Assembly: GCF_000021865.1 (NCBI RefSeq)
Contig: NC_014035.1
Location: 100,963 to 132,962 of the forward strand
Origin: Rhodobacter capsulatus SB 1003
GTDB lineage: Bacteria > Pseudomonadota > Alphaproteobacteria > Rhodobacterales > Rhodobacteraceae
Reading direction: 5' to 3'
DNA length: 32,000 bases
Shown here: piece after piece, positions 1,852-22,766 of the stretch
Numbering within the stretch: position 1 is the stretch's first letter
Layout: every line of letters starts with the position of its first letter
Notes under the pieces: generated by a model
The model's database searches: none
The model's input: the letters and a program-made list of their open reading frames with translations, nothing else
What the model was told of the DNA's origin: nothing
Translations under genes and position numbers: made by a program

Positions 1852-2421
1852 TCAGGCCGCGGTGGCGCCGCGGGCGCGGAGGATCGGCCAGGCCCGCTTG
1901 ACCGACAGCGCGACCGCGGCGGTGATCCCCGCCTTGACCAGATCGCCCGGGATGAAGGGGGCGGATCCCAGCGCGGCCGCCTTGAGCGACAGCCCCGCCT
2001 GTACCGCCAGCACCGGAACGCCGAGGCCATAGAGCACGACGATGCCGCCGATCGTGGCAAAGACGAACGAGCGGAGCGCGGTCAGGCGTTTCCAGCCCAG
2101 CTCGTGCAGCAGGCCGGTCACATAGGCGGCCGGGATCCAGCCCAGCAGGAAGCCGACCGTCGGCCCGGCAAAGACGCCCAGCCCGCCGCGCCCGCCCGAC
2201 AGGATCGGCAGCCCCAAAGCGACCAGCACGACGACAAGCCCCATCGCCAGCGCGCCGCGACGGGCACCGATGACCGCGCCCGCGAGCATCGGCCCCATCG
2301 ATTGCGCGGTGATCGGAACGCCGATCAGCGGCAGGGTGATCGGCGGAAACAGCGCCAAAGCGGCCGTCAGCGCCGCGAAAAGCGCGATCAGGACGATGTC
2401 GCGGGTGGAAAGGGAAGTCAT
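1852..2421 (-). CDS. bioY: Biotin ECF transporter S component BioY
   Basis: 189-aa hydrophobic protein with BioY-family sequence (ITAQSMGPMLAGAVIG..., GGRGGLGVFAGPTVGFLLGW). It is the last gene of a bioM-bioN-bioY arrangement. Confidence 0.9.
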   Translation of the reverse strand: MTSLSTRDIVLIALFAALTAALALFPPITLPLIGVPITAQSMGPMLAGAVIGARRGALAMGLVVVLVALGLPILSGGRGGLGVFAGPTVGFLLGWIPAAYVTGLLHELGWKRLTALRSFVFATIGGIVVLYGLGVPVLAVQAGLSLKAAALGSAPFIPGDLVKAGITAAVALSVKRAWPILRARGATAA

Positions 2422-2443
2422 CGCAGGGGTCCTTCGGAGGGGG

Positions 2444-3037
2444 TTATCGGGAAATGGCGGCGCCGTCGTGATGACCGGACCGGGCCTCGATCGCCTCGGC
2501 GACCTCGTCGGCGGTCTTGAGAACGCGCAGGATCAGCGGCAGGATCAGCGCCAGAGGATGGGTGCCAAGACCGCGCGCCGCCTGGGCTTCGCGCACCCGC
2601 AGCGCCTCGTCGCGGATCACCGGCAGGAAGCGCAGCGCCAGCGCCAGCGCCAGACCGACCTTGGCCGGGTTGACGCCGAGCGGCGCCAGCGGGGCCAGCA
2701 GCCGTTCCAGCGTCGCGATCAGATCTTCGGTGCGGGTGGTCAGGGTGACCAGCGCGGCGAGCAGGATCAGCGTCAGGATCCGCAGCACGACCAGCGCGGC
2801 CAGGCTCCAGCCCGCCAGCCAGCCCTGCACCGGAAAGAGGATCGCCAGCATCCACAGCAGCGGCGCGACCTGCGCCCGGATCTGCGCGCGGCCGAAGCCC
2901 GCCAGCCGGAAGCCCGCCAGCGTCAGCGCCAGCGCGGCCAGCATGATCGCGGGCGCTTCGACCAGCATCAGCCCGGTTCCGGCCAAGGCCAGCGCGGCCA
3001 GTTTCGGTCCCGGCGGGCAGCGGTGCAGGGGGCTCAT
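2444..3037 (-). CDS. bioN: ECF transporter transmembrane (T) component BioN (CbiQ/EcfT family)
   Basis: 197-aa membrane protein with a C-terminal ...ALRFLP...EA..ARG... EcfT-type signature. Its ATG overlaps the bioM stop (ATGA) and it lies between bioM and bioY. Confidence 0.85.
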   Translation of the reverse strand: MSPLHRCPPGPKLAALALAGTGLMLVEAPAIMLAALALTLAGFRLAGFGRAQIRAQVAPLLWMLAILFPVQGWLAGWSLAALVVLRILTLILLAALVTLTTRTEDLIATLERLLAPLAPLGVNPAKVGLALALALRFLPVIRDEALRVREAQAARGLGTHPLALILPLILRVLKTADEVAEAIEARSGHHDGAAISR

Positions 3038-3795
3038 GTCATCCGCTCCACATAGGACCGCAGCGCCGGGCCGGGTTCATCATCGGCGACGATCCGGCCC
3101 TGATCAAAGACCAGCACGCGGTCGAAACCGGCCAGCAGCGGCAGGTCATGGGTGACGACGATCGCCGTCTGTGCCAGATCGGCGATCACCTGCCCGATCC
3201 GGCGGGCATTGCGCAGATCCAGCAGCGTCGTCGGCTCGTCGAAGACGATGCAATCGGGCGCGGTGATCAGCACGCCCGCAATCGCCAGCAGCTGTTTTTG
3301 CCCGCCCGACAGCCGATGCGCCGGGGCCTGGCGCAGATCGGCCAGGCCGAAACGGTCAAGGATCGCGGTGACTTTCGCGGCGCGCTCCGCCGCGCCGGAC
3401 TTCTGGCCCTTGAGTCCGAAGGCGATGTCTTCCTCGACCGTGGGCAGGACGATCTGGGTATCGGGGTTCTGAAACACGAAGCCGACCTTGCGCCGTACCG
3501 CCCTGGCCTCGCGGGCGGTCTCCAGCCCGTCGATGCGCACCGTGCCGCGGTCGGGCAGCATCAGCCCGTTCAGCAATCGCGCAAACGTGCTTTTGCCCGA
3601 CCCGTTCGCGCCGACGATGCCAATGCGCCGCTCGGTCAGGGTCACGGAGATCCCGCGCAGCACGTCGCGCCCGTCAAAGCTTTGAAAAACATCGGAAATT
3701 TGTATGGTGGTGGGTGCCGCAGGCAGGGAAGGAAGGGCACTGCCTGCGGCGCCTTGCAACCGCAAGCTGCTGGCGACAATACTTGAAACCATCAT
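3034..3795 (-). CDS. bioM: ECF transporter ATPase BioM (ABC ATP-binding protein)
   Basis: Walker A GANGSGKST, signature LSGGQKQ, Walker B IVFDEPT. The start is uncertain: the ORF is open to GTG 3837, and ATG ATG at 3795/3792 is the last start upstream of the ABC core. The N-terminal ~35 codons are compositionally atypical and contain a 14-bp hairpin. Confidence 0.85.
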   Translation of the reverse strand: MMVSSIVASSLRLQGAAGSALPSLPAAPTTIQISDVFQSFDGRDVLRGISVTLTERRIGIVGANGSGKSTFARLLNGLMLPDRGTVRIDGLETAREARAVRRKVGFVFQNPDTQIVLPTVEEDIAFGLKGQKSGAAERAAKVTAILDRFGLADLRQAPAHRLSGGQKQLLAIAGVLITAPDCIVFDEPTTLLDLRNARRIGQVIADLAQTAIVVTHDLPLLAGFDRVLVFDQGRIVADDEPGPALRSYVERMT

Positions 3796-3862
3796 CGGTT
3801 TGCCCCATTTCACTTGTGGTTGCATGGTTCTGGTCACTCGGTTGGACGTTCCGCCAAGAAAA

Positions 3863-5093: not shown

Positions 5094-5303
5094 TTATTCG
5101 ATGATCATGATCACCGCACCGGGTTTCAGACGGTCGCCCGGGTTGACGGCGATCGACTTCACCGTGCCGTCGATCGGCGCGGGGGTGTCGTTCTTCATCT
5201 TCATCGCCTCGACGACGGCGACGCATTGCCCCTTGGTGACGGTGGCGCCCACCGCGACCTCGATCGAGACGATCACCGAGGGCATCTTCACTTTCACATC
5301 CAT
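5094..5303 (-). CDS. madF: Biotin carrier protein of malonate decarboxylase (minimal biotinyl domain), MadF-like
   Basis: 69-aa protein with the canonical biotinylation motif EAMKM (VAVVEAMKMKND). It overlaps the upstream gene's end by 10 nt. Confidence 0.85.
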   Translation of the reverse strand: MDVKVKMPSVIVSIEVAVGATVTKGQCVAVVEAMKMKNDTPAPIDGTVKSIAVNPGDRLKPGAVIMIIE

Positions 5304-6046
5304 TGCCTTTTCCTTTCTGGCTGTTTGATTGGGTGTTGCGGGTCGGGCCGCGCCGGGGGCGGGGCCTCGAAAAGGGAGATCAGGTGGGGGCGCTCGATCA
5401 GCTCGACGCCGGTGATGGTCTTGCCCAGCACCGAGCGCGCCCCCGACAGAAGTTCGGTCAGCTTGACGCCGATGCCGCCGGGCAGGGCGACTTCGGCATC
5501 GACCGCCAGGCCGCGCCGTTTCGCCAGCGTGGCCAGCATCGTTGCCAGTTGTTCCAGCGCGCGCAGGCTCTCGGCGCGGACCACCAGATCAAGATCGGAG
5601 TCCGGGCGCAGATAGGGCAGGCCGGTCACCGTCTGCAGCGCGGCCGAGCCGATCAGGCCGATCTCGACCCCGGAGAGGGCGCCTGCGCGGGCGATCTCGG
5701 GCAGGGCGGGATGCAGGTTCGGGCCGAGGATCAGGGCGCGGTCCATCACCTCCCAGGGGGTGAAAAAGGCCGAAACCTGGCCGCGCCGCACCGGCACCGC
5801 GGCGCGCACCCGTTCGGCGCCGTGGCGGAACGGGAAGGAGAACCCGAGCTGGCCGCCGCCATCGGGGCAGGGGCCGGTGGGACGGCAGACGATGCCGGGG
5901 ATATGCGCCTTGCTCATCGCGTCGCGCACCAGCTTGCGGGTGCCGGGGTCGCGCATCTGCTCGGGCAGCGCGTCAAGAACCGCGGCCAGGATGCCCGGGC
6001 GCGAGGCGGGCGAGACATGGGCAAGGCTGTGACGGATGCGGAACAT
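5294..6046 (-). CDS. madK: Malonate decarboxylase holo-ACP synthase (phosphoribosyl-dephospho-CoA transferase), MdcG/MadK family
   Basis: Contains the MdcG-family core ...GS.AL...G..YL...SDLDLVVRA.... Its ATG lies 1 nt after the upstream stop (TGAGATG). Confidence 0.8.
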   Translation of the reverse strand: MFRIRHSLAHVSPASRPGILAAVLDALPEQMRDPGTRKLVRDAMSKAHIPGIVCRPTGPCPDGGGQLGFSFPFRHGAERVRAAVPVRRGQVSAFFTPWEVMDRALILGPNLHPALPEIARAGALSGVEIGLIGSAALQTVTGLPYLRPDSDLDLVVRAESLRALEQLATMLATLAKRRGLAVDAEVALPGGIGVKLTELLSGARSVLGKTITGVELIERPHLISLFEAPPPARPDPQHPIKQPERKRQWM

Positions 6047-7167: not shown

Positions 7168-8061
7168 TCAGCGGCTGGGCGCGTAGCGATCCGCCACGGC
7201 GGCGAAATCGCGGCTCATCATCTCGATGACGCGGGGACGCTCGATCCGGCCGCCGCGGGCTTCGCCCAGCTTGCCGCGGCCCCAGGGGCCAAGATCGTCC
7301 TGCCGTCCCTCCAGCTTCGCGGCCCGGACCTCGGCGATCCGCGCGACGATGGCGGGGCGCATGCCATCGAGCGTCTCGACCAGCGCCTCGACGCCGCCAA
7401 GCGAGTGGAAGAAGCGCGGACCGGCGGCAAAGACGGCGCTTTGCTTCGACAGGACTTCCAGCGTTTCCAGATCCTTGCGGATGATCCGCGAGACCGAGGT
7501 CAAGGGCATCACATGGATCATCGTGCCGAATTGCGCATCGAGCGACAGGATCGCATCGGCCTGCAGCCCGTGGCACAGGAACGCCCCCGAGATCGCCCGG
7601 CCGATCACCATGGCGATGATCGGATGGCCCTTCAGCCGCGCCTCGGCCAGCGCCAGCTGATAGGCGGCGGTCGATTTGTTCATGCCGAAGATTTCCTCGA
7701 CCTTGCCCGGGCCGTTGCCGGGGGTGTCGACGATCAGCACCAGCGGCCGTTTTTCCGCCAGCGGCTTTTCGGCATCCTCGATGATCGAGGCATAGACCGC
7801 CTCGGCCATCTTGTAGCCTTCCTCCAGCCCGATGATCCCGGCGTAGACCACCGGGAATTTCTCGTTCATCGCGCCGCCATCCGAGGCGATGATCGTGCAG
7901 ACCGTGCCTTGCAGCGTCGCGGTGCCGACGACCGCGCCCGGCCCGAATTCGGGATCGTCGAAGCTTTTCGCCCCCACGGTGCCCTCGGCGAAGCTGCCCG
8001 CATCGACGATCATCTCGATCGCGTCGCGGCCCCGCCCCATCATGCTTTCCTGCATGTCCAT
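7168..8061 (-). CDS. madD: Malonate decarboxylase carboxyltransferase subunit (MadD; MdcE/gamma-like, AccA-type half)
   Basis: AccA-like carboxyltransferase sequence (LVLIVDTPGNGPG...IIAMVIGRAISGAFL). It lies directly downstream of the MdcD-like subunit. Confidence 0.85.
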   Translation of the reverse strand: MDMQESMMGRGRDAIEMIVDAGSFAEGTVGAKSFDDPEFGPGAVVGTATLQGTVCTIIASDGGAMNEKFPVVYAGIIGLEEGYKMAEAVYASIIEDAEKPLAEKRPLVLIVDTPGNGPGKVEEIFGMNKSTAAYQLALAEARLKGHPIIAMVIGRAISGAFLCHGLQADAILSLDAQFGTMIHVMPLTSVSRIIRKDLETLEVLSKQSAVFAAGPRFFHSLGGVEALVETLDGMRPAIVARIAEVRAAKLEGRQDDLGPWGRGKLGEARGGRIERPRVIEMMSRDFAAVADRYAPSR

Positions 8062-9051: not shown

Positions 9052-9360
9052 TCAGGCCGCGGCCAGCGCCTGTTGCAGGCGCAACAGCACGACGGCGGGG
9101 GTGGCGTTGTTGTCGTTGATCTCGATGCGGGCGTCGCAAAGCCCGGACTCGTCGAGGAATTTCTGCAAGACGCGGGTCCAGAGCGCGTCAAAGCCGGTGA
9201 CGGGGGTGACCACGGTCACCGCGACGCGGCCCGAAAGGTCTTCGGGATGCATCATGATTTCCAGATCGCTGGATCCGGTGACGCCCACATGCAGGCGGGC
9301 TTGGATCTTCGTCTTCGGCGCGGCGGCGGCCAGATCCAGGGTGAGAGTGTGCAAGGCCAT
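9052..9360 (-). CDS. madE: Malonate decarboxylase acyl carrier protein (MadE/MdcC, delta subunit)
   Basis: 102-aa CitD/MdcC-like protein with the prosthetic-group serine region GVTGSSDLEIMM. Confidence 0.85.
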   Translation of the reverse strand: MALHTLTLDLAAAAPKTKIQARLHVGVTGSSDLEIMMHPEDLSGRVAVTVVTPVTGFDALWTRVLQKFLDESGLCDARIEINDNNATPAVVLLRLQQALAAA

Positions 9361-9374
9361 GATTTTGCCTGTCT

Positions 9375-11048
9375 TTACCAGTTGCGGAAGCGGGCGGGCG
9401 GGTTGTAAAGGCCGCCGGACCAGGTCACGAGATCGCGCATGCTTTTCGCGGCCAGCAGGTCGCGGTTGGCACGGGCGGGGTTGATGCCCAGATCGGAGAC
9501 GGTCTTGACGATGCCCGCCTCGCGCAGGGCGCGGGTTTCTTCGGGTTTCGCGGCAAGGCCGATGTCGGTGAAGCCCGCGACGGCGCGGATGGCGGCCATG
9601 CGGGCCTCCATGTCCTTGCAGCGGTTCAGGTAGGCGATGCCTTCCTCGGTGACGATATGGGTCAGGTCGTCGCCGTAGATCATCACCGGCGGGATCGGCA
9701 GATCGGCATCCCGCGCCAGTTTCCAGGCGTCAAGTTCGTCGACAAAGACCGGGGCACGGCCCTCGCCGAAGGTTTCAACCCCTTGCACCACAAGGCGTTT
9801 GCCGCGCGGCAGATTGCCGATGTCACGCTCGAGCGAGGGCAGTTCCTGGCCGCATTTCAGCCAGGCGTCGGTCGGGTGGCGCCGCCCCTTGGCATCGCAG
9901 CCCATGTTCGGCGCGCCGCCGAAGCCGGCCACCCGGCCCGCCGTCGCGGTCGAGGAGTTGCCGTATTTGTCGATCTGCAGCGTGCCGCCGATGAACATGT
10001 CGATGGCGTAATGCCCCGCCGTCTGGGCAAAGGCCCGGTTCGAGCGCAGCGAGCCGTCCGGCCCCACGAAGAACACGTCCGGCCGCGAGGCGACGTAATC
10101 TTCCATGCCCAACTCACCGCCGAAGCAATGGATCGTGTCGACCCAGCCTTCCTCGATCGCCGGGATCATGGTCGGATGCGGGTTCAAGATCATATGCGTG
10201 CAGCATTTGCCCTTGAGCCCCAGTTCCAGACCATAGGTCGGCAGGATCAGTTCAATGGCCGAGGTCAAAAAGCCGATGCCGTGGTTCATCGAGCTGACGC
10301 CATATTCGGCATAGATCCCCTTCAGGCACATCATCGCCAAAAGGATCTGGCTGTCGGTCACCAGCGCCGGATCGCGGGTGAAAAGCGGCTCGATGAAGAA
10401 CGGCTTCGGCGATTGGATCACCGCATCCACCCAGTCGCCCGGAATATCGACGCGCGGCAGTTCGTCAACGATTTCATTGACCTGCGCGATGACGATGCCT
10501 TCGCGGAACTTTGTCGCCTCGACGATGGCGGGGGTGTCTTCGGTGTTGAAGCCGGTGTAAAGGTTGCCCTTGCGGTCAGCCTTGTAGGCGCAGACGAGCG
10601 AGACCCGCGGCGTCAGGTCCAGGAAGTAGCGGCCGAAAAGTTCCAGATAGGTGTGGATCGCGCCCAGCTCGATCTTGCCATTGGCGATGAATTTCGCCAC
10701 CCGCCCGGCTTGCGGCCCGCCAAAGGCGAAGTCGAGTTTCTTGGCGATGCCGTTTTCAAAGAGATCCAGATGCGCGGGCAGCGGCACCGCCGATTGCACC
10801 ATGTGCAGGTCATGGATCTTGCCGCGGTCAACCTTGTTCAGGCATTCGGCCAGGAAGTCGGCCTGTTTCTGGTTGTTGCCTTCGATGTTGATGATGTCGA
10901 AGGGGCGGATCACCGCTTCCAGAAGCGCCACCGTATCCTTGGCGAGCACTTCCTTGCCCTTGACATAGAGGGGCGCTGCCGCCTCCTTGCGCGCGGCGGT
11001 ATCTTCCGCCCGCTTGCGCCAGCTGTTGCGCTTGTCTTGCTGCGTCAT
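9375..11048 (-). CDS. madA: Malonate decarboxylase alpha subunit (acetyl-S-ACP:malonate ACP transferase, MadA/MdcA)
   Basis: 557-aa protein with the length and sequence of the MdcA family, flanked by the other mad genes. Confidence 0.93.
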   Translation of the reverse strand: MTQQDKRNSWRKRAEDTAARKEAAAPLYVKGKEVLAKDTVALLEAVIRPFDIINIEGNNQKQADFLAECLNKVDRGKIHDLHMVQSAVPLPAHLDLFENGIAKKLDFAFGGPQAGRVAKFIANGKIELGAIHTYLELFGRYFLDLTPRVSLVCAYKADRKGNLYTGFNTEDTPAIVEATKFREGIVIAQVNEIVDELPRVDIPGDWVDAVIQSPKPFFIEPLFTRDPALVTDSQILLAMMCLKGIYAEYGVSSMNHGIGFLTSAIELILPTYGLELGLKGKCCTHMILNPHPTMIPAIEEGWVDTIHCFGGELGMEDYVASRPDVFFVGPDGSLRSNRAFAQTAGHYAIDMFIGGTLQIDKYGNSSTATAGRVAGFGGAPNMGCDAKGRRHPTDAWLKCGQELPSLERDIGNLPRGKRLVVQGVETFGEGRAPVFVDELDAWKLARDADLPIPPVMIYGDDLTHIVTEEGIAYLNRCKDMEARMAAIRAVAGFTDIGLAAKPEETRALREAGIVKTVSDLGINPARANRDLLAAKSMRDLVTWSGGLYNPPARFRNW

Positions 11049-11078: not shown

Positions 11079-11909
11079 TCAAAGGGTTGCCTGCGTCGCG
11101 GCGAGGGGGATCTCGCCGAAGATGACGCTGTGAAGGGTGCCGTCGGCGGTGCGCAGACAGAGCGCGCCATCCGGGCCAAGCGCCTCGGCGATGCCCTGAC
11201 GGGGGGCTTGCGGGGCGGAAAGGGTGACGGGCTGGCCCAGCGTGCAGGAGCGCACCGACCAGGCATGCCGGGCGGGCTCGAAGCCGAGGCGTTCCCATTC
11301 GGTCAGCCGGTGGTCGAGCCGTTCGACCAGCGCCGCGAAAAGATCGAAGCGGTCGACCTTGCGGCCGGTTTCGGCGCTGATCGAGGTGGCGATGGCTTGC
11401 AGCTCCGGCGGGAAATCCGTGCGGTTCTGGGCGATGTTGATGCCGATGCCCGCGATGATGTGATCCAGATCGCCTTCGGGGGTCAGCACCAGTTCGCACA
11501 GGATGCCCGAAAGCTTGCGGCCCGCGACCATCAGGTCGTTCGGCCATTTGATTTGCGGCGCAAGGCCCGTGCTGCGGGTGATGGCCTCGGCCGCGGCGAC
11601 GGCGATGACAAGCGTCACCTGCGCCAGATCGGCCAGAGGGCGGGAGGGACGCAGAAGCACCGAGGCGAGCAGGCTTTCCCCGGGACGCGAAACCCAGGGT
11701 CGGTCGTATTTGCCCCGTCCGGCCGTCTGATGATCGGCCAGAACGATGGTGCCCGTGGGCGCGCCCCTCCGCGCCAGACCGGCCAGGAAGCTGTTTGTGG
11801 AGGACAGAACGGGCCGGTGGTGGACCGCGCAGCCGATCCCGGTCCGACGCCGGACGGGAAGGGCAAGCGTCGGGAGGTTCGGGAGAAGATCGGGATGGTG
11901 CGCGGTCAT
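11079..11909 (-). CDS. birA: Biotin--protein ligase (class I BPL, no N-terminal HTH)
   Basis: Motifs HQTAGRGKYDRPW (GRGRxGRxW type) and IKWPNDL. 276 aa with no DNA-binding domain. It is embedded between madB and madA. Confidence 0.85.
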   Translation of the reverse strand: MTAHHPDLLPNLPTLALPVRRRTGIGCAVHHRPVLSSTNSFLAGLARRGAPTGTIVLADHQTAGRGKYDRPWVSRPGESLLASVLLRPSRPLADLAQVTLVIAVAAAEAITRSTGLAPQIKWPNDLMVAGRKLSGILCELVLTPEGDLDHIIAGIGINIAQNRTDFPPELQAIATSISAETGRKVDRFDLFAALVERLDHRLTEWERLGFEPARHAWSVRSCTLGQPVTLSAPQAPRQGIAEALGPDGALCLRTADGTLHSVIFGEIPLAATQATL

Positions 11910-13162: not shown

Positions 13163-13279
13163 TCAGGATGCGTTGGGAGAGGAGAGGAGTTTCGAGATGC
13201 CGACGATCACGCCGATCACCGCAAAGGAGATCGCGGCGGTGATCAGGTAGCTGAAGGCGGCATAGGTGATGATGTTCAT
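13163..13279 (-). CDS. 38-aa single-TM hydrophobic peptide (possible OadG-like accessory subunit)
   Basis: MNIITYAAFSYLITAAISFAVIGVIVGISKLLSSPNAS. Its ATG at 13279 is preceded by GAGG and starts 7 nt after the madG stop; its own stop lies 9 nt before the madB start. Its position immediately upstream of the beta subunit mirrors oadG-oadA-oadB logic. Confidence 0.45.
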   Translation of the reverse strand: MNIITYAAFSYLITAAISFAVIGVIVGISKLLSSPNAS

Positions 13280-13286
13280 GGATGCC

Positions 13287-14243
13287 TCAGGGGTTGCAGG
13301 GGGCGAAGGGCAGGGCCTCCGCGGGGAAGATCGGGGGCAGCTCGCCCCCGGAAAGCGCATCGACGCCAAGGGTCACGGCCAGAAGATCGGCCGCGCCGCC
13401 GGGGCTGATGTGTCGTTCGATGAACCGCGCATCGAGCGCGTGGATCGCCGCCAGCCCGTCGCCGGTCAGCGCGCCGCCAAGGGCGAGGATCTTGCGGGCC
13501 TCGGTCCGCATGAAGCTCAGCGCCGCGGGACCGCCGCGCCACAGCACGGTGGTGTCCTCGGTCTCGGCCATCAGCGCGATCAGCGTGTGGCACAGGCTGG
13601 TGGCCAGCGTCGCGCCGCTGGCGCGGGCGGCGCGCAGGGCGGGCAGGCCGTGGTTGCGCACGGTCGGATAGCCCGCCTCGGCCTCGCCGCGGATGCCAAG
13701 GACACCGTATTGACGAAACAGTTTCTCGCCCGCGGTTTCGGCCTCGCGGTGCAATCCGGCGCGCAATTCGCGGTCGCAGATCCCGGCGACCATCGCCGCG
13801 GCGGTGTCGAACAGCGCCGCCTCGGTCAGGTCGTCCCTGCGGGCGGCCAGCCCCGCCGCCGCCGCCAGCACGCCCGCCGAAAACAGCAGCCCGCGCTGGG
13901 TGTTGACGCCGCGCGTCGCGGCCAGAAGCCGGGCCTCGTAGATCTCGCCGATGGCGCGCACCCGGGGCAGCAGCGTCAGGGCCGGGCCGGCATGGTCAAG
14001 CCCGGCCTCCGCGCATTGGTAAAGACAGGGCGCAATCACCGCCGAAGAGACCATGAAGGTCTGCAGGTTCATGTCCCGATGCGCGCCGTTCGAGCGCGGC
14101 GTCACCAGACCGGGTTTGGGATGGGTGGAGATTTCCAGCAGCGCCCCGGTCAGGAAAGCCGATCCGATCGACCAGGCGCTGGTTTGCGGTGACAAGGCAA
14201 TGTCGCTGAACCAGTCCAGCGGCCTGCGCAACGCGTATTTCAT
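13287..14243 (-). CDS. madG: Triphosphoribosyl-dephospho-CoA synthase (MadG/MdcB, CitG family)
   Basis: CitG/MdcB core motif THPKPGLVTPRSNGAHRDM. ATG at 14243; the ORF is open to a TTG at 14261. Confidence 0.9.
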   Translation of the reverse strand: MKYALRRPLDWFSDIALSPQTSAWSIGSAFLTGALLEISTHPKPGLVTPRSNGAHRDMNLQTFMVSSAVIAPCLYQCAEAGLDHAGPALTLLPRVRAIGEIYEARLLAATRGVNTQRGLLFSAGVLAAAAGLAARRDDLTEAALFDTAAAMVAGICDRELRAGLHREAETAGEKLFRQYGVLGIRGEAEAGYPTVRNHGLPALRAARASGATLATSLCHTLIALMAETEDTTVLWRGGPAALSFMRTEARKILALGGALTGDGLAAIHALDARFIERHISPGGAADLLAVTLGVDALSGGELPPIFPAEALPFAPCNP

Positions 14244-14284
14244 GGGTTTCGTCCCGCGCAACTGACGGCAGCGCGGCGCTTCGT

Positions 14285-14299
14285 GAACGCCAGGCGTTC
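14285..14299. promoter_or_regulatory. 15-nt perfect palindrome GAACGCC-A-GGCGTTC about 40 nt upstream of the madG start
   Basis: Read directly from the sequence. It could be a protein-binding dyad or a small RNA hairpin next to the RBS. Confidence 0.3.
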
Positions 14300-14422
14300 C
14301 ACGGCCAATGCAGGGATTACCTCTGGTCGGGGAAACCGTCAGACATGCGCCACACCGATGTCACTTGCTCACGCGGCGCTTTGGGTTCGTCAGCCGTCGC
14401 AGCCCCACGCGGGCAGACGGCT

Positions 14423-14486
14423 CATCACGGGATCACGGCCCTGTCGGGCAGCTTCGCCTCACGTCCTTGTGATCGTTCGTGATCCG
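14423..14486. repeat. Four GATCAC-type hexamers arranged as two tandem pairs in inverted orientation
   Basis: CATCACGGGATCACGG (14423-14438) and GTGATCGTTCGTGATCCG (14469-14486). They can form two 6-bp helices (GATCAC:GTGATC and ATCACG:CGTGAT) around a ~32-nt loop. Confidence 0.7.
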
Positions 14487-14563
14487 AAGCATGGCAGCAT
14501 CGTTACGCCTGTCGCCCGGGCTTGTCCAGAAATCGTTTTCAGGGCGCAAGAGGCTGCGTCAAA

Positions 14564-14640
14564 GCGCCGCAGTTTTGCAGCTATTCATGGCAAAATCAAT
14601 GACTTGGCAAAAATGGAGCCAGCTTTGCAACAGCGGCGCG
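14564..14640 (-). promoter_or_regulatory. AT-rich core of the mad leader with nested dyads; candidate promoter/operator
   Basis: This is the only AT-rich stretch in the ~500-nt intergenic region. It is bracketed by GCGCCGC (14564-70) and GCGGCGC (14633-39). Inside are TTTTGC-N11-GCAAAA (14573-14595), GCAAA-N12-TTTGC (14607-14628) and two direct TGGCAAAA copies. Confidence 0.35.
14606..14621 (-). promoter_or_regulatory. Sigma-54-like -24/-12 element TGGCTC-N5-TTGCC facing the mad operon
   Basis: The minus strand reads TGGCTCCATTTTTGCC. The GG and GC dinucleotides are at the consensus spacing of TGGCAC-N5-TTGC. No enhancer-binding protein gene is present in the window. Confidence 0.2.
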
Positions 14641-14743
14641 CGGGAATTGGCCCGCGGCTTGCGGCTCGCGTTTTCGTCAACGGCGACAGGCGATTGCGGC
14701 GCGGCGGCAGGCCGGGCGGCAATCGCCATGCAGCCATGGAAGT

Positions 14744-15160
14744 CTAGATATGCATCACCCCGAAGCCGATGCGTTCGTGGTTCGTCGTGGGATGAAAGGC
14801 CGATTCGCCATGCGCGGCGACGGCGACCCAGTGCCCGTCCGAGACCAGCGCCACCTTGAGCTTGAGGTTCGATTCCGCCACCACCGTCGCCGAGACCCCC
14901 TGCAGGCATTCCAGCCCGGCGTGAATCACCCCGTGCACGGCGCCCGGGCGGTTGTGGATCACCCCGCCGTTCAGCGCACAGGCGACGATCGACTTGACGA
15001 AGCCCTTTTCGATTTCGGACCGCCGCCCGGTGACATAGGTGATCCCCACCTTCCAGGTCGGATGGGCCAGGATCTGCTCCTTGATCAGGTCTTCCTCTTC
15101 GCGGCTGCTGATGGCGGCCATGATGGCGGCCTTGCCGATTCTGTCTGCTGTGACTTGCAT
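14744..15160 (-). CDS. HutP-family protein
   Basis: The 138-aa protein aligns end to end with Bacillus subtilis HutP as I recall it: RIG near the N-terminus, WKV, GVI, HGVIHAGLECLQGV versus HALYHATMEALHGV, WVAV versus WIAV, and the C-terminal HERIGFGVMHI versus HETFGVGINHI. Confidence 0.8.
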   Translation of the reverse strand: MQVTADRIGKAAIMAAISSREEEDLIKEQILAHPTWKVGITYVTGRRSEIEKGFVKSIVACALNGGVIHNRPGAVHGVIHAGLECLQGVSATVVAESNLKLKVALVSDGHWVAVAAHGESAFHPTTNHERIGFGVMHI

Positions 15161-15180
15161 GTTCGTTCCGATCCGACCCG

Positions 15181-15264
15181 TTTCACCGCGTTCATAGCGG
15201 CGCGACAGGGGCGGCTCAATCGCGATGATCGCGGCCCGCGCGGCGGCGCGGTGAAAGCCGCCCC
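15181..15264. repeat. Two perfect, mutually crossing inverted repeats in the PAS-hutP-like intergenic region
   Basis: TTTCACCGCG (15181-90) pairs with CGCGGTGAAA (15247-56). GGGGCGGCT (15208-16) pairs with AGCCGCCCC (15256-64). The order A,B,A',B' means a pseudoknot or alternative structures. The region begins 1 nt after the PAS gene stop. Confidence 0.65.
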
Positions 15265-15265
15265 G

Positions 15266-16504
15266 TCAGCCGTCGGGATCCGCCTTCACGAAGCGGCTCA
15301 TGGCGCTGCCGATGTCTTCGGACAGCCGCAGGATGGTCTCCAGCCGGGCCTTGATCTCGGCGTGAAACAGATCGAGCTGATCGATCGTCGAGACCAGACC
15401 GGCGCCGTTTTCGCGCAACCGGCCGCATTCGACGCGCCCCATCACCCGGATCGTGTCCAGACCCAGCATCAGCCGCCGGATCTCCGCGCTGGATCGGGCC
15501 AGCTCCTCGGCATGGCCGACCGCAGTCGTCAGCGCGGCATGGCTGTCGCGCCGGGTGGCGCCGCGTGCCTCGGCCAGTTTCGCGGCCTCGGTCTGCCAGT
15601 CCAGCCCGGGAACCGGCTCGGCCTGCCGGAAGGTCGCGATCATTTCCGCCATCACCCGATTGGCCCCCAGCAGGAAAAGCGCCCGCGCCACCTCGCGCGA
15701 GACGCGGTCGCACAGATTCTCCCGGCCGCTGACGAAACTGCGCAGCCGGTCCGAGATCACCAGGCTCGAGGCGCGGTAATTCTCGGAGATCGCCGAAACC
15801 GGCCCGCCCGAGGGTTCCAGCCGCGAGGCGACAAGGCGCATGTTGTTCGGGATCGACTGCAGCGATTCGAAACTGCGCAACAGCTTCTTCTGTTCCTGCG
15901 TCACCCGTTCGAGGGCCTCGTTCATCTCGATCAGCCGCCGGGTGCGCGGGTCTTCCGGGCGGCCAAGCCGATGGTCGCGCGCGGCCAGTTCCTGCCCCAA
16001 AGCGCTGGCCATGAAGGTGGTGTAGCTGGTGAATCCCGCCTCGGTGATGATCGTCCAGAGCCTGCGCGCGCTGTCGCCGGGATCCAGTCGCTCGGCGCGT
16101 TCGCGGGCCGCAAGCTCGGCATAGACCTTGCGGATCTGCGCGAAAAGCGGCGTCGAGGGCTTGAGACGGACCGACAGGAACCCGCCCTCGGTGGGCAGGA
16201 TCACCGCGAAGACCCAGTAGAAATCGCCATTGCGGGCGCGGTTCTTGACATAGCCGCCCATCGGAAAGCCGTTGCCAAGCGCATCCCACAGGATGCGAAA
16301 CACCGCACGGGGGGTGTCGGGGTGGCGGATGATCTTGTGCGGCGCGCCCAGAAGCTCTGACCAGGCGAAGCCGGAGACATTCTGGAAGACATCGTTGCCT
16401 GCCAGAATGACCCCGCGCGGATCGGTCCGCGAAAAGAAAAGATCGTCGAGTCGAAAATTGACCTCGCCCTCGGGCTGGCCGGAGAGATCGCGCTGATGAG
16501 TCAT
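15266..16504 (-). CDS. Soluble Aer-type PAS sensor protein with a degenerate MCP-signalling-like helical C-terminal region
   Basis: The N-terminus matches the Aer PAS domain (FFSRTDPRGVILAGNDVFQNVSGF...LLGAPHKIIRHPDTPRAVF..LW..L..G.P..GYVKNRARNGDFYWV). No TM segment is present. The C-terminus has two segments that only faintly resemble the MCP hairpin tip: IPNNMRLVASRLEPSGGPVSAISEN and IRVMGRVECGRLRENGAGLVSTIDQ. Confidence 0.75.
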   Translation of the reverse strand: MTHQRDLSGQPEGEVNFRLDDLFFSRTDPRGVILAGNDVFQNVSGFAWSELLGAPHKIIRHPDTPRAVFRILWDALGNGFPMGGYVKNRARNGDFYWVFAVILPTEGGFLSVRLKPSTPLFAQIRKVYAELAARERAERLDPGDSARRLWTIITEAGFTSYTTFMASALGQELAARDHRLGRPEDPRTRRLIEMNEALERVTQEQKKLLRSFESLQSIPNNMRLVASRLEPSGGPVSAISENYRASSLVISDRLRSFVSGRENLCDRVSREVARALFLLGANRVMAEMIATFRQAEPVPGLDWQTEAAKLAEARGATRRDSHAALTTAVGHAEELARSSAEIRRLMLGLDTIRVMGRVECGRLRENGAGLVSTIDQLDLFHAEIKARLETILRLSEDIGSAMSRFVKADPDG

Positions 16505-16602: not shown

Positions 16603-17967
16603 TCAGGCGATCCCGGCCAGATGCGCCAGAACGCCAAGACCGGCCGACCCGGCCAGCACCGCCGCCATGCCCCAGCCGCGCCGGAACAGCGCCCAGACCG
16701 CGACGGCGGCAATTCCGGTTGCGGGCAGATCAAGCGTGGCCATCTGCGGCAGATCAAGGCTGACCGGCCCAAGGCTGATCCGCGTGACCCCGCGCCAGAG
16801 CAGATGCAGCGCAAACCACAGCGCCAGATTGGCGATCACCCCCACCACCGCCGCGGTGACCGCCGAAAGCGCCGCGCCAAGGGCACGGTTGGCGCGCAGC
16901 CGCTCGATGAAAGGCGCCCCAAGGAAAATCCAGGCAAAACAGGGGGCAAAGGTGACCCAGCTGGCCAGAAGCCCGCCCAGACTGCCCGCCAGCAGCGGCG
17001 CCTCCCAGCCCGCGGCGCGAAAGGCCGCCATGAAGCCGACGAATTGCAGCACCATGATCAGCGGCCCGGGCGTCGTTTCCGCCATGCCCAGCCCGTCCAG
17101 CATCTCGGTCGGCCGCAGCCAGCCGAAATCGGTCACCGCCGCCTGCGCCACCCAGGCCAGCACCGCATAGGCGCCGCCAAAGGTCAGCACGGCAAGTTTC
17201 GAAAAGAAAAGCGCGATCGCGGTGAAGACACTCTCGGGTGCAAGCAGCCAAAGCGCCGCCACCGGCAGCAGCCACAGCATCAGCGCCACGGCGCCCGCCC
17301 TCAGCGCGGCGCGGCGCTCGGCTCCGGTCGGGTCGCCGTGCTCCTCGCCCAGAAGCGTTTCGGCATCGGGGGTCGCAGGGCCGCCCGCCGCGCCATGCCC
17401 GCCGGGCGCAAAGGCCGCGGGCGCGATCAGGCCGCCAAGCACGCCGATCAGCGCCGCCGCCGCCACGATCAGCGGGAACGGCAGGGCCAATGCGAAAAGC
17501 CCGACAAAGGCCGCCACCGCCAGCGCCCGTTGCGCCCGGGTTTTCAGCGCGCGTTTCGCCAGCCGCAGCACCGCCTGCGCGACGATCGCCAGCACCCCGG
17601 CCTTGAGCCCGAAGAAAAGGCCCGCGACCAGCCCGCCCCCGCCCCAAAGCGCATAGATCCAGCTGAGCGTCATCAGCGCGGCCACACCGGGCGCGAGGAA
17701 CAAAAGCCCCGCCAGAACCGCGCCGCGCACCCCATGCAGCAGCCAGCCGACATAGGTGGCCAGCTGCATCGCCTCGGGACCGGGCAAGAGCATGCAGAAG
17801 TTCAGCGCATGCAGGAAACGGGCGTCGCCGAGCCAGCGTTTTTCCTCGACAAGGATGCGGTGCATCACCGCGATCTGCCCCGCCGGTCCGCCAAAGGACA
17901 GGCCCGCGATCCGCGCCCAGACGCGCGCGGCTTCGCCCAGACCGGGCCTTTCGATGCTGCCGCTCAT
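16603..17967 (-). CDS. chrA: Chromate ion transporter ChrA (CHR family, duplicated domain)
   Basis: 454-aa polytopic protein with the characteristic ChrA N-terminus ...GLSFGGPAGQIAVMH..LVE.KRWL....F..ALNFCMLLPGPEA.QLA. Confidence 0.9.
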   Translation of the reverse strand: MSGSIERPGLGEAARVWARIAGLSFGGPAGQIAVMHRILVEEKRWLGDARFLHALNFCMLLPGPEAMQLATYVGWLLHGVRGAVLAGLLFLAPGVAALMTLSWIYALWGGGGLVAGLFFGLKAGVLAIVAQAVLRLAKRALKTRAQRALAVAAFVGLFALALPFPLIVAAAALIGVLGGLIAPAAFAPGGHGAAGGPATPDAETLLGEEHGDPTGAERRAALRAGAVALMLWLLPVAALWLLAPESVFTAIALFFSKLAVLTFGGAYAVLAWVAQAAVTDFGWLRPTEMLDGLGMAETTPGPLIMVLQFVGFMAAFRAAGWEAPLLAGSLGGLLASWVTFAPCFAWIFLGAPFIERLRANRALGAALSAVTAAVVGVIANLALWFALHLLWRGVTRISLGPVSLDLPQMATLDLPATGIAAVAVWALFRRGWGMAAVLAGSAGLGVLAHLAGIA

Positions 17968-19613: not shown

Positions 19614-19795
19614 CTCGGGCGCCTTCCTCTGCTCGCAGCATCCCCTCACAGATCCGAGACATAACCCTCCCCGGCCGCGTTGACGACATAGGTGCTGCGG
19701 ACAGGAAAGACGACCCGCAAGGAACATCCGCCCGGCAAGGCACCGACCGCTTCGGGTGAATGCGCCGCTTTCGAAGGACTTTCCCGACCGAACTC

Positions 19796-19824
19796 TTGAT
19801 TTGTACGTCCATTTGGCGTACATG
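19796..19824 (+). promoter_or_regulatory. Candidate toxin-antitoxin promoter with an embedded dyad operator
   Basis: TTGATT (19796-19801), a 17-nt spacer, then TACATG. The spacer carries TGTACG-N9-CGTACA (19802-19822). This is the usual layout for antitoxin autoregulation. The -10 element is weak. Confidence 0.35.
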
Positions 19825-19848
19825 ATGGCTGCGACACAGGAGGCGGCC

Positions 19849-20157
19849 ATGCTTGGTTTCCACGACAGCACGCGCGCGATCGATGAGCGGAACGAGGCCC
19901 GGATGAATTTCCGGACGAAGCCGCGCATCAAGGCCGCGATCCAGCAGGCGGCGGCGCTTTCTGGCGTCGACGATTCCGTCTTCACGATGAATGCCGCCTA
20001 TCAGGCCGCGCTGGCAACGATTGCCGCGCATGAACGCACAATGCTGCAGCCGGTCGATCATGACGCGTTTTTCGCGGCACTCGATGCTCCGGCCGCGCCG
20101 ACAGACACCCTGCGCGCGGCCTTCCGTCGGCATGGCAAAACGGTCGTGTCGCAGTAG
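19849..20157 (+). CDS. DUF1778 (TacA/RHH-type) antitoxin of a GNAT toxin-antitoxin pair
   Basis: RMNFRTKPRIKAAIQQAAALSGVDDSVFTMNAAYQAA...DHDAFFAALDAPAAP fits the DUF1778 pattern. ATG at 19849 is preceded by AGGAGG with a 5-nt spacer. Its stop abuts the toxin ATG. Confidence 0.85.
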   Translation: MLGFHDSTRAIDERNEARMNFRTKPRIKAAIQQAAALSGVDDSVFTMNAAYQAALATIAAHERTMLQPVDHDAFFAALDAPAAPTDTLRAAFRRHGKTVVSQ

Positions 20158-20718
20158 ATGGCGGCATCGCAACCGGCCTTCTGCCGCATTGAGCCGTTCG
20201 ATCCGGAAAGACATGATCGGGCGGCTTTTTCTTGCGGCGTCAAACAGGTCGACACCTACTTTCAGAAGACGGCCAACAAGCTTGCCAAGGCGGACAATGT
20301 TCGTCTCTATGTGATGGTCGATCCGGGCGGCACGGTCATCGGCTTTTATGCTCTCAATGCGCATGCCGTTCACTTTGCGGATTTACCTGCAAAATTCGCG
20401 CGGACACGTCCGTCGCACGGCAACATCCCGGCGGCATATATCTCGATGATCGGGCGCGATCAGAGGGTCCGCGGGGGCGGCTATGGCGGCGATTTGCTTG
20501 TCGATGCGCTGCGCCGGATTGCGGTTGCCGCAGAGGCCATCGGCGTCGCGGTCGTCATGCTTGATGTGCTCGATTGTGGCGATCCCGCCCGCGTGGCCCG
20601 CCGCAAGGCGCTCTATGAAAGCTACGGCTTTCTGCCGCTCGCCTCGAACCCGCTGAGGATGTTCCTGCCCGTCAGCGTCGTTCGAACCCTTGTCGCGGAA
20701 GAGCCATCCGGCCGATGA
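20158..20718 (+). CDS. GNAT-family acetyltransferase toxin (TacT/AtaT/KacT type)
   Basis: N-terminal F.CG...VD.YF motif, GFYAL core and a GNAT acetyl-CoA region (RVRGGGYGGDLLVDAL). It starts immediately after the antitoxin stop (TAGATG). Confidence 0.85.
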   Translation: MAASQPAFCRIEPFDPERHDRAAFSCGVKQVDTYFQKTANKLAKADNVRLYVMVDPGGTVIGFYALNAHAVHFADLPAKFARTRPSHGNIPAAYISMIGRDQRVRGGGYGGDLLVDALRRIAVAAEAIGVAVVMLDVLDCGDPARVARRKALYESYGFLPLASNPLRMFLPVSVVRTLVAEEPSGR

Positions 20719-21602: not shown

Positions 21603-22766
21603 TTGCTGCGAGGCTGCTTGACCCGAACTCCCTTGACCCTGACCGGCAGCGCGCTTGCCGTCCTGCGAGCCCTTGTCGAACGGGGGCCATCGACCCGGCC
21701 ACAGCTGGGGCAGGATCTTGGCCTGTCGCGCCCCACCATGTCGGCTGCCATCGCCGAGTTGATCCAGGCGGGCCTGGTCGAGCCGATCGGCGCGGTTCAG
21801 GGCGGCATGGGCCGTCGGGCGGTGGAATATCGCGTCGCCACCCATGCCGGGCATGTGATCGCGGTCGATGCGGGATCGACGCATATCCGGCTGCGGCTCT
21901 CGACTCTGGACCGGCGGCTTCTGCATTCCAGCCTGCACCCGTTGCCGCAAAGCCAATATGCGCTGACGCCGCAGATCAGCGCCGTCGTGGCCGCCGCCGT
22001 GGCCGAGGCTTTGGCGCGGACCGAGGCCGACTGGGGCCCCTTGCAGGCGATGGTCATCGCCGTTCCGACCCGCGTCGTCGGGCCCGAGGGCGATACCGCC
22101 GCGACCGATCAGGAGGTGATCTACAGCAATTTCACCCCGCCGCCGCAGGTGGAATGCACACTGGTGAACAACGTCAACTGCGCGGCCGTGGCAGAATATC
22201 ACTATGGCGCGGCGCAGGGACGGCAGACCTTCGCCTTTCTGCAGGTCGGGGTGAAGATCGGTCTGGGGCTGATGCTGAACGGGCAGATCCTGCGCGGCGT
22301 CAATGGCGCGGCGGGGGAAATCGGTCATATCTCCTTTCCTTTCGCGCCGGGCCTGACACCGCAACGCGGCGAGGCAGAGCGCTATCTGGGCACCGAGGCT
22401 TTCATGGCCCGGGTCCGCGCCGGCTGGCCCGCCGATGCCGGCCCGCCGCCCCGGGACACCTATGAGCTTCTGGCCCGGGCGGGGACGGGCGATGCCACCG
22501 CGCTGGCCCATGTCGAGGAACATGCCGCCCAGATCGGCGCGGTGATCGCGATCTGCGTCAGCGTGATCGACCCCGGGCTGGTGGTGCTGGGGGGCGGCTA
22601 TGGCGCCTCGCCGCTGCTGCGCCCCAAGGTCGAAGAGGTGGTCCGCCGCCTCGCCTTCCCGGCCGAAATCACCACGAGCACGCTCGCCGCCGAGGCGACG
22701 GTTCTGGGCGCCGAACGTCTGGCCGTCGAGCGCGCCGTCTCGGCCCTGCTCGGCCTGCCCTGCTGA
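21603..22766 (+). CDS. ROK-family transcriptional regulator (NagC/Mlc-like repressor)
   Basis: N-terminal winged HTH (RPQLGQDLGLSRPTMSAAIAELIQAGLV) followed by a ROK sugar-kinase-like fold (VIAVDAGSTHIRL, VNNVNCAAVAE, GAAGEIGH). The start is uncertain, with TTG candidates at 21603, 21618 and 21633. Confidence 0.85.
   Translation: MLRGCLTRTPLTLTGSALAVLRALVERGPSTRPQLGQDLGLSRPTMSAAIAELIQAGLVEPIGAVQGGMGRRAVEYRVATHAGHVIAVDAGSTHIRLRLSTLDRRLLHSSLHPLPQSQYALTPQISAVVAAAVAEALARTEADWGPLQAMVIAVPTRVVGPEGDTAATDQEVIYSNFTPPPQVECTLVNNVNCAAVAEYHYGAAQGRQTFAFLQVGVKIGLGLMLNGQILRGVNGAAGEIGHISFPFAPGLTPQRGEAERYLGTEAFMARVRAGWPADAGPPPRDTYELLARAGTGDATALAHVEEHAAQIGAVIAICVSVIDPGLVVLGGGYGASPLLRPKVEEVVRRLAFPAEITTSTLAAEATVLGAERLAVERAVSALLGLPC

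Follow-up and report, generated by a model that had tools for sequence, protein, structure and literature searches.

Which factor controls the malonate decarboxylase (mad) operon of Rhodobacter capsulatus SB 1003 is a question posed by the locus itself, where the operon follows, on the same strand, a gene for a HutP-family protein and a gap of 500 nucleotides (nt). Malonate decarboxylase/utilization operons are controlled in response to malonate by the DNA-binding factors MdcR (LysR) and MdcY (GntR); for the biotin-dependent, sodium-pumping malonate decarboxylases, the type encoded here, we know of no described regulator, and none was found in the open-access literature searched. We analyzed a stretch of 32,000 nt around this locus (contig NC_014035.1, positions 100,963 to 132,962; herein referred to as the window; G+C ~66%), in which every feature of the finding lies on the minus strand. 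We consider it probable, from sequence comparison, that the window protein represents a distinct and widespread branch of HutP and is an RNA-binding regulator of the mad operon, acting through two sites of triplet repeats (sites A and B) in the operon's leader, with malonate as a possible ligand. The features on which the argument turns are these:

14744-15160, minus strand: HutP-family protein of 138 amino acids (PF09021 and HutP fold), the proposed RNA-binding regulator
14244-14743, minus strand: gap between hutP and madG, 500 nt
13287-14243, minus strand: CitG/MadG, triphosphoribosyl-dephospho-CoA synthase (Pfam CitG, 260 bits), the first mad gene and presumed regulated target

Read 5' to 3' on the minus strand, the order is a chromate transporter, a PAS_3-domain protein, the HutP-family protein, the 500-nt gap and madG. 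The gap is conspicuous because junctions elsewhere in the operon measure 1-35 nt, with a single longer one of 133 nt between madG and madB that contains a 38-amino-acid open reading frame (ORF). Pfam scans of the 31 likely window genes detected no LysR or GntR domain, and the sole transcription-factor-like gene encodes a ROK/MarR protein (21603-22766) adjoining a sugar ABC transporter. The proposed regulator thus shares with MdcR and MdcY a malonate decarboxylase operon as target, and differs from those DNA-binding transcription factors, neither of whose domains the window encodes. No hut gene occurs in the window; mad genes stand downstream of hutP instead. An initial annotation of this DNA was correct on each of these points: the same-strand order of PAS gene, HutP-family gene and gap ahead of the mad genes (now backed by Pfam and coordinates), a gap far longer than the other junctions, and the absence of an MdcR-type LysR or MdcY-type GntR gene from the window. 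It had also asked whether HutP-family genes recur near other mad clusters, and for clusters of the biotin type they do, in both directions of search (below).

A HutP branch that travels with mad clusters

The window protein matches PF09021 at 119.8 bits (cut-off 25; E 1e-34), residues 8-136 spanning profile positions 1-128 of 128. Its AlphaFold model (monomer, pLDDT 92) contains the HutP fold (alpha/beta, with a four-stranded antiparallel sheet), and a structure search with this model returned HutP crystal structures as all of the top 11 PDB matches (TM 0.72-0.81, identity 23-26%). The closest protein by HutP identity is that of R. capsulatus DSM 1710 (98%), and annotation pipelines already name such genes "HutP family protein", without an assigned function. 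Pfam family and fold are thus shared with Bacillus subtilis HutP, whereas identity is 23-26% and the hut-specific NCBIfam equivalog NF002838 reaches 31.2 bits against a cut-off of 155. On a neighbor-joining (NJ) tree rooted on B. subtilis HutP, a long internal branch separates the latter from all 76 relatives. Judged by this score and this branch, the 138-residue protein is not an orthologue of the histidine-utilization regulator.

The residues that we take to form the L-histidine pocket of B. subtilis HutP (Arg88, Arg98 and Tyr69) are not kept in the window protein in either of two alignments, one to the PDB sequences and one of the subfamily: Arg88 is replaced, aligning with Ala91 at a position that varies with genomic context, Tyr69 falls in an alignment gap, and the partner of Arg98 is Lys100 or Ser97 depending on the alignment, gaps in the Arg98-Gly101 stretch being placed differently in the two. 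Further departures from B. subtilis HutP are the deletion of two loops (MLLG and RGNPYESE) and an invariant Asn, part of a family-wide TNHER motif, in place of Glu137, presumably an RNA-contacting residue. A shared feature is the trio H76, H80 and H128, which is invariant in 76 of 76 aligned relatives and aligns with His73, His77 and His138 of the B. subtilis protein, reportedly its divalent metal ligands (Kumarevel et al. 2005). This pattern is compatible with a protein that has kept the metal site and changed both its ligand and its RNA code.

Linkage to mad genes was assessed from both sides. In the forward test, a pattern scan with one genome per species gave 73 HutP-relative loci, which were searched by tblastn with the window mad proteins; mad genes were present at ~40 of them, in four arrangements:

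hutP and madG in that order, 425-1200 nt apart: Rhodobacter, Rhodobium, Breoghania, Roseospira, Afifella and Pseudovibrio, also R. rubrum
hutP at the cluster end, after madLM with or without bioMNY: Rhodopseudomonas, Bradyrhizobium and Rhodospirillaceae
hutP divergent from madG: Prosthecomicrobium, Phyllobacteriaceae and Hohaiivirga
madB-(birA)-hutP-madA: Negativicutes and Clostridia

No Malonomonas locus was among the 73 genome matches. The reverse test started from 80 metagenomic loci chosen by MadH alone, 26 of which extend at least 8 kb upstream and at least 6 kb downstream of madH; a HutP relative is encoded at 22 of these 26, many of which are near-identical gut contigs, so that the independent cases are fewer. 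In PLSDB the only MadH match (L079) is a cluster annotated citG-madB-mdcA...madL-madM-"HutP family protein", with a convergent LysR gene adjoining. Together, these tests support the HutP-family gene as a conserved companion of biotin-type mad clusters.

Two of these records deserve separate mention. The PLSDB cluster (CP125156.1, 4587423-4616522) lies in a 5.37-Mb record labeled "Klebsiella pneumoniae plasmid unnamed2", evidently an enterobacterial chromosome. One metagenomic mad cluster (L132) carries two hutP-like genes, at 2461 before madB and at 5477 before madA, with GAG triple repeats at 3062 and 5928.

Triplet repeats and structure in the mad leader

An alignment of the gap from eight Rhodobacter sequences, on which the Rhodobacter comparisons below are based, divides it in two: the first 230 nt 3' of hutP are poorly conserved except for one hairpin, and the final ~250 nt (roughly 14493-14244) are well conserved. 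From hutP toward madG, the elements are:

14677-14740, minus strand: strong hairpin just 3' of the hutP stop (-38.5 kcal/mol, z -5.25), terminator-like, without a U-tract
14500-14528, minus strand: promoter-like element, TGGACA (14528-14523), 17-nt spacer, TAACGA (14505-14500)
14438-14490, minus strand: leader helices P1 (14490-14451; 5 of 9 pairs changed on both sides, 93% of cells paired) and P1b (14449-14438)
14421-14436, minus strand: site A, GUGAUCCCGUGAUGAG, GUGA twice (8-nt period), single-stranded, flanked by P1b and P2
14392-14422, minus strand: helix P2, between sites A and B (95.6% of cells paired, two pairs changed on both sides)
14347-14379, minus strand: site B hairpin, stem GCGCC (14379-14375) / GGCGC (14351-14347)
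14353-14372, minus strand: site B, GUGAGCAAGUGACAUCGGUG, three GUG repeats with spacings of 8 and 9 nt, in the hairpin loop
14262-14342, minus strand: long-range helix CUGACGG (14342-14336) / CCGUCAG (14268-14262), 98% paired in the eight sequences, one compensatory pair

The repeats are the core of the case. GUGA repeats with an 8-nt period on the sense strand of the mad leader are an element new here. Within site A, GTGA and GTGATGAGCC are invariant in the Rhodobacter alignment, and a doublet of the same type (e.g., GUGUGAUCUCGUGAUC) follows a GC hairpin in L010-L018, L074 and L080. A covariance model of site B (R1) scores 46.5 bits (E 4e-10) on window positions 14336-14382, minus strand, and finds 24 matches at E <=0.003 in 1.26 Mb, all in sense-strand leaders; among them are L012 and L033, which were not in its training set, and an additional L040 leader that precedes madLM. 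Pairing in the site B stem reaches 82%; A-U is exchanged for G-C, and G-C for C-G/U-A, and the covariation is 0.33 versus 0.14 in shuffles. In 16 less-redundant leaders (10.5 kb), the sense strand has 16 instances of GTG-N4-6-GTG-N4-6-GTG and the antisense strand 0, versus 0.2 expected from the rest of the loci (nominal Poisson P 2e-25, which ignores relatedness), and 18.5% of the distances between neighboring GTGs in leaders are 8 nt versus 1.2% in the background, likewise uncorrected for relatedness. Within the window alone, a shorter repeat pattern is not enriched (5 matches vs 2.5 expected), and the repeat argument is thus a comparative one. Repeats are always accompanied by a HutP-family gene, and at L070 they occupy both of the divergent mad leaders. 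The hut arrangement of two sites of three NAG triplets with a 7-nt period is absent from the window leader, which has GUG(A) at 8-9 nt in 2+3 repeats.

The surrounding structure was modeled as five helices across 14490-14262, which in the eight sequences are 96.3% paired versus at most 45.5% with the partners slid; ten pairs changed on both sides, a result reached by 0 of 500 shuffles. The long-range helix encloses a hairpin (GAACGCC..GGCGUUC) and ends 6 nt before a Shine-Dalgarno-like GGGA (14255-14252). RNAalifold and the minimum-free-energy fold predict an alternative pairing of site B with 14279-14262; this segment never varies, so that the alignment does not discriminate between that pairing and the site B hairpin. 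Rfam contains no family that matches at gathering thresholds over the window, or at E up to 10 over 14150-14800.

The boundaries of the transcripts can be suggested from the same comparison. CTGGACAAGC and GGCGTA-CG are invariant in the eight sequences, and (C/A)TGGAC followed 17-18 nt on by an A-rich hexamer also occurs in L010, L011, L013, L015-18, L074 and L080; a consensus promoter scanner gave no call for the element at 14500-14528. We infer from this conservation that the element is the mad promoter inside the gap, with a start that would give a leader of ~250 nt. At the place of the hairpin just 3' of hutP, hairpins in L006-L009, L021 and L036 precede T runs and were read by eye as intrinsic terminators. 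On the other side of hutP is another conserved element:

15161-15230, minus strand: conserved block 5' of hutP with TTGAGC (15219-15214), 16-nt spacer and CTATGA (15197-15192), kept in six R. capsulatus-group sequences

This TTGAGC-N16-CTATGA resembles the alphaproteobacterial sigma-70 consensus and is probably hutP's own promoter. The ~500-nt structured leader of the initial annotation hence needs revision: a hairpin and a promoter-like element in the first half speak against a single 500-nt leader, and a structured leader of ~250 nt stands.

Two other candidates in the gap were discarded. A sigma-54 promoter (TGGCTCC-N4-TTGCC at 14620-14605) has GG and GC elements that are not conserved even among R. 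capsulatus strains. Each ORF listed for the gap is either short or in a part that Rhodobacter relatives conserve poorly (translations were not compared), and the 8-nt period of the repeats, not being a codon period, argues against a conserved ORF.

Some leaders of related genera have additional features. A motif GAGUACGAG(C/A)UUAUGC is present in two copies ~75 nt apart in L012 (~10690-10790), L017 (~7970-8060) and L018 (~11115-11215), and in one copy in L015 (~11530-11560); the last copy holds the likely madG start codon, and in three species the in-frame stretch between copies would add a Cys-rich N-terminal extension (MRAC...CCS). In Breoghania (L012, L017 and L018), a conserved inverted repeat TGGCA-N15-TGCCA followed by TTTGCCGCAA precedes the CTGGAC element by ~60 nt. 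A further transcription factor may use it as a DNA operator; in Rhodobacter it is not conserved.

The same protein-repeat pairing in other phyla

Distant relatives pair the protein with repeats of the same kind. The repeats of Negativicutes and Clostridia are GAG with an 8-nt period, and their final copies double as the 5' arm of a canonical terminator ahead of madB, madA or a CoA-transferase gene; an overlap of repeats with a terminator 5' arm is present in L047, L054, L056, L067 (terminator -26.5 kcal/mol, z -7.1), L060, L059, L063 and L046. Bacteroidales have hutP, then GUG repeats, a terminator and a V-type ATPase operon, and the V-ATPase loci place GUG repeats and an intrinsic terminator between the hutP relative and the operon, the terminator of L029 being downstream of the repeats. 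In Spirochaetes (L036 and L039), 2+3 GUGA repeats lie between hutP and the CoA-transferase gene, and in Thermoanaerobacter three GUGA repeats in the hutP 5' untranslated region (UTR) overlap its Shine-Dalgarno sequence, with more repeats abutting the 5' arm of the terminator that precedes the OAD genes. With repeats serving as 5' arms of canonical terminators, the Firmicutes and Bacteroidales relatives almost certainly regulate by antitermination. Position 100 of the protein is Lys in the Gram-negative clade with GUG repeats and Ala or Met in Firmicutes with GAG repeats; as far as these alignments tell, protein and repeat motif change together across clades. Taken together, the pairing of gene and repeats suggests a branch of protein-mediated RNA control that has not been described.

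Several observations on these loci stand apart from that argument. Triple repeats (GUGAGAGAGUGAAAGAGUGAGAAAGG, GUGAGAUAGAGGGAAUGAGUG) lie over the ribosome-binding site in the hutP 5' UTR of L046, L049, L051 (9941-9970), L052, L056 and L067, which suggests autoregulation; no such 5'-UTR site is visible upstream of the window hutP. The V-ATPase-linked relatives (L028, L029, L031, L037, L041 and L076-L078; e.g., L077 7001-14420) come from Bacteroidales, including Segatella copri, and Spirochaetes, are 43-50% identical to the window protein and form one clade on the NJ tree. Relatives that precede a family-III (CaiB/BaiF-like) CoA-transferase gene belong to Sporomusa, including S. malonica (L052, L054, L056 and L067), and to Spirochaetia (L036, L039 and L042), where MadM-like, carboxyltransferase and OAD-beta genes come after the CoA-transferase gene; these loci may represent a CoA-transferase route of dicarboxylate decarboxylation that is controlled in the same way.

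The likeness to the hut system extends to the arrangement, with a regulator gene upstream of a catabolic operon and, in the Firmicutes and Bacteroidales relatives, repeats overlapping a terminator just after hutP. HutP binds two sites of triplet repeats with nonconserved spacers that wrap two faces of the hexamer, destabilizing a terminator, and has been compared with TRAP (PMC2425495); here, too, the cis element consists of two sense-strand sites of tandem triplet repeats with nonconserved spacers. It differs in using GUG(A) with an 8-nt period, whereas hut uses UAG/NAG with a 7-nt period, in targeting malonate decarboxylase rather than hut genes, in having hosts that include Gram-negatives and, in Rhodobacter, in an hutP that is apparently its own transcription unit and a leader without a visible canonical terminator. 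A 2025 review of RNA-binding antiterminators gives HutP for the Bacillus hut operon only (PMC12591593), and searches of the open-access literature gave no report that ties HutP to malonate or to V-ATPases.

TRAP of Bacillus, which can affect both termination and translation, is also a ligand-activated oligomer that binds many spaced (G/U)AG triplets in a 5' leader. It is unlike the present system in its unrelated fold and family, in its 11 repeats with 2-3-nt spacers, compared with 2+3 repeats and 4-5-nt spacers here, and in being a repressor.

A proposed mechanism and its alternatives

We hypothesize that hutP is transcribed from its own promoter up to the hairpin behind it, and the mad operon from the promoter in the gap, giving the ~250-nt leader. 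The protein, presumably a hexamer, would be loaded with a divalent metal and a small ligand and would then bind one site on each face, A and B, in the way that HutP takes up its pair of UAG-rich sites. This would open the site B hairpin and allow the downstream leader to re-pair, whereupon madG and the rest of the operon would be expressed; the re-pairing could involve AGCGCCGCG, present in duplicate (14380 and 14280), the long-range helix CUGACGG/CCGUCAG and possibly a CCGCGC/GCGCGG hairpin in contact with the GGGA. The ligand would be malonate, chelating the metal as histidine does in HutP. Malonate appears the most economical ligand because the operon is catabolic and has no other regulator nearby, and malonate is a bidentate metal chelator, analogous in this to the histidine of HutP.

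Several results weigh against this account or narrow it. The five-helix model was derived from the same eight sequences that support it, which fall into two subclades and represent few independent lineages. Folded as a single sequence, the leader is no more stable than shuffles (z -1.06), so that the case for structure depends on comparison between species. A terminator scan gave no canonical intrinsic terminator on the gap's minus strand, its single match in the gap being on the plus strand; antitermination is therefore unproven in Rhodobacter, where the step controlled could be read-through of an atypical or Rho-dependent terminator, access to the ribosome-binding site and translation, or RNA stability. 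In the enterobacterial cluster (L079), which ends in hutP, neither GUG nor GAG triple repeats were found upstream of citG, and a LysR gene adjoins the cluster, so that one kind of regulator does not exclude the other. Alphaproteobacterial clusters with hutP at the end fall outside the repeat survey, their madG leader lying just beyond the 10-kb flank. Finally, a sister clade of the same subfamily stands at V-type ATPase operons, and the ligand need not be malonate.

Set against the initial annotation, these results strengthen its idea that a HutP homologue would control a malonate operon at the level of RNA, through linkage, fold and a concrete cis element. The topology that it had equated with Bacillus hut is exact in the Firmicutes and Bacteroidales relatives and looser in Rhodobacter, where hutP seems to be its own unit and the leader has no canonical terminator, and its phrase "in place of MdcR/MdcY" is true of the window and is not universal, given the enterobacterial cluster with both hutP and LysR.

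The V-ATPase clade leads to an alternative in which the protein-RNA system is the same and the signal is a sodium-cycle cue (Na+, a divalent cation, pH or energy state), any malonate specificity coming from elsewhere. That the V-ATPase-linked relatives lie directly upstream of their operons, with GUG repeats and a terminator, that other relatives precede OAD-beta genes or CoA-transferase/decarboxylase sets, and that the three metal-site-aligned histidines and the TNHER motif are invariant in all contexts would be expected of a common signal. However, the NJ tree gathers the V-ATPase-linked proteins in a single derived clade, whereas mad-linked proteins are on both deep branches; positions 91-92, which align with Arg88-Gly89, differ by context (N/D then H in the V-ATPase clade), which fits ligand switching; and a catabolic operon without a nearby regulator is most simply substrate-induced. 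We regard a sodium-cycle signal as unlikely.

A different alternative would treat the GTGA repeats as the DNA operator of an unlinked transcription factor and the HutP-like protein as, for example, an assembly or cofactor-handling factor for the decarboxylase. Direct repeats by promoters are typical of operators, RNA binding by the window protein is itself a proposal, and the enterobacterial cluster has hutP and a LysR gene without repeats. Yet the repeats are strictly on the sense strand (16 vs 0) and lie past the promoter-like element, a period of 8 nt is not a helical repeat, they sit within a stem-loop whose stem covaries, they form terminator arms in Firmicutes, their sequence shifts with the HutP clade, and together with hutP they also occur beside operons unrelated to mad. 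A DNA operator is, on this evidence, very improbable.

Less probable again is a protein-independent riboswitch or attenuator to which the hutP linkage is incidental: five leader helices with covariation support would suit one, but no Rfam family matches the leader, the triplet repeats are all that is shared across phyla, with no core resembling a ligand pocket, and those repeats always co-occur with a HutP-family gene. We find scarcely credible the gating of the HutP homologue by the PAS sensor, with the two genes and a 500-nt leader as one module, which the initial annotation had suggested from the adjacency of the genes on one strand (105-nt gap), since a PAS homologue occurs at 1 of 73 HutP loci (L001, a close relative) and is missing from the other 72, those of other R. 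capsulatus strains included, the genes upstream of hutP vary from genome to genome, similarity among six R. capsulatus-group sequences runs from hutP ~90 nt upstream and then ends abruptly, a synteny break between the PAS gene and the hutP promoter block that puts the PAS gene outside the conserved module, and the other neighbor of the PAS gene is a chromate transporter.

Returning to RNA-level regulation by the HutP homologue, a more far-reaching extension, to which we give somewhat less than an even chance, is that HutP is the founder of a broad class of ligand-gated triplet-repeat RNA regulators, with a GNG/8-nt branch devoted to sodium-cycle operons, and that its Rhodobacter member is the first from a Gram-negative and a direct malonate (metal-chelate) sensor. 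The sodium-cycle branch so conceived covers Pseudomonadota, Bacillota, Bacteroidota and Spirochaetota and comprises biotin-type malonate decarboxylase, CoA-transferase/decarboxylase sets, OAD-type pumps and V-type ATPases. If the proposed mechanism for the mad operon is right, protein-mediated triplet-repeat RNA control would reach Gram-negatives and gut Bacteroidales, an already solved fold would have a new RNA recognition code (GUG/GAG, 8-nt period), and a compact, possibly malonate-responsive RNA switch would become usable in engineering; the predicted binding sites are placed to the nucleotide.

The rest of the operon and its neighbors

Downstream of madG on the minus strand follow the 38-residue OadG-like ORF, madB, a biotin ligase gene (birA), madA, madE, madC, madD and madH, and then mdcG, madF, madL, madM, bioMNY and an SBF-type transporter. 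The set for a biotin-dependent, Na+-translocating malonate decarboxylase is complete: MadA, MadB (OAD-beta type), the carboxyltransferase MadC/MadD, MadE, MadF, MadG, MadH, MdcG and MadL/MadM. All window mad proteins have Pfam matches except MadH and MadF; the window MadH is homologous to R. rubrum genes bearing PF27502 (MadH_C). Further features of the operon and of the region upstream of hutP are:

9052-9360, minus strand: MadE, acyl carrier protein
5094-5303, minus strand: MadF, biotin carrier, 69 amino acids, assigned from sequence and position only
15266-16504, minus strand: PAS_3-domain protein, 412 amino acids (PAS_3 E 1.2e-8, residues 37-104), a neighbor outside the conserved module
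16603-17967, minus strand: chromate transporter, the other neighbor of the PAS gene

The PAS protein is an Aer/NifL-like PAS sensor with an uncharacterized output domain, its C-terminal 290 amino acids (residues 120-412; 15266-16147, minus strand) matching no Pfam or NCBIfam family. The ORF of 38 residues in the madG-madB junction (13163-13279, minus strand; MNIITYAAFSYLITAAISFAVIGVIVGISKLLSSPNAS) encodes a membrane peptide, looks unannotated and may be an OadG-like subunit; comparable small ORFs lie upstream of madB in Firmicutes loci and in R. rubrum. A BioMNY biotin energy-coupling factor (ECF) transporter (1852-3837, minus strand) and the biotin-protein ligase (11079-11909, minus strand) are embedded in the mad cluster, which thus carries its own cofactor supply for a biotin-dependent decarboxylase. 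Elsewhere in the window, the plus strand has at 19756-20718 a gene for a TacA-like antitoxin (Pfam TacA1, E 1e-19) and, immediately after it, an ORF of 186 amino acids without a Pfam match; the two may form a toxin-antitoxin pair.

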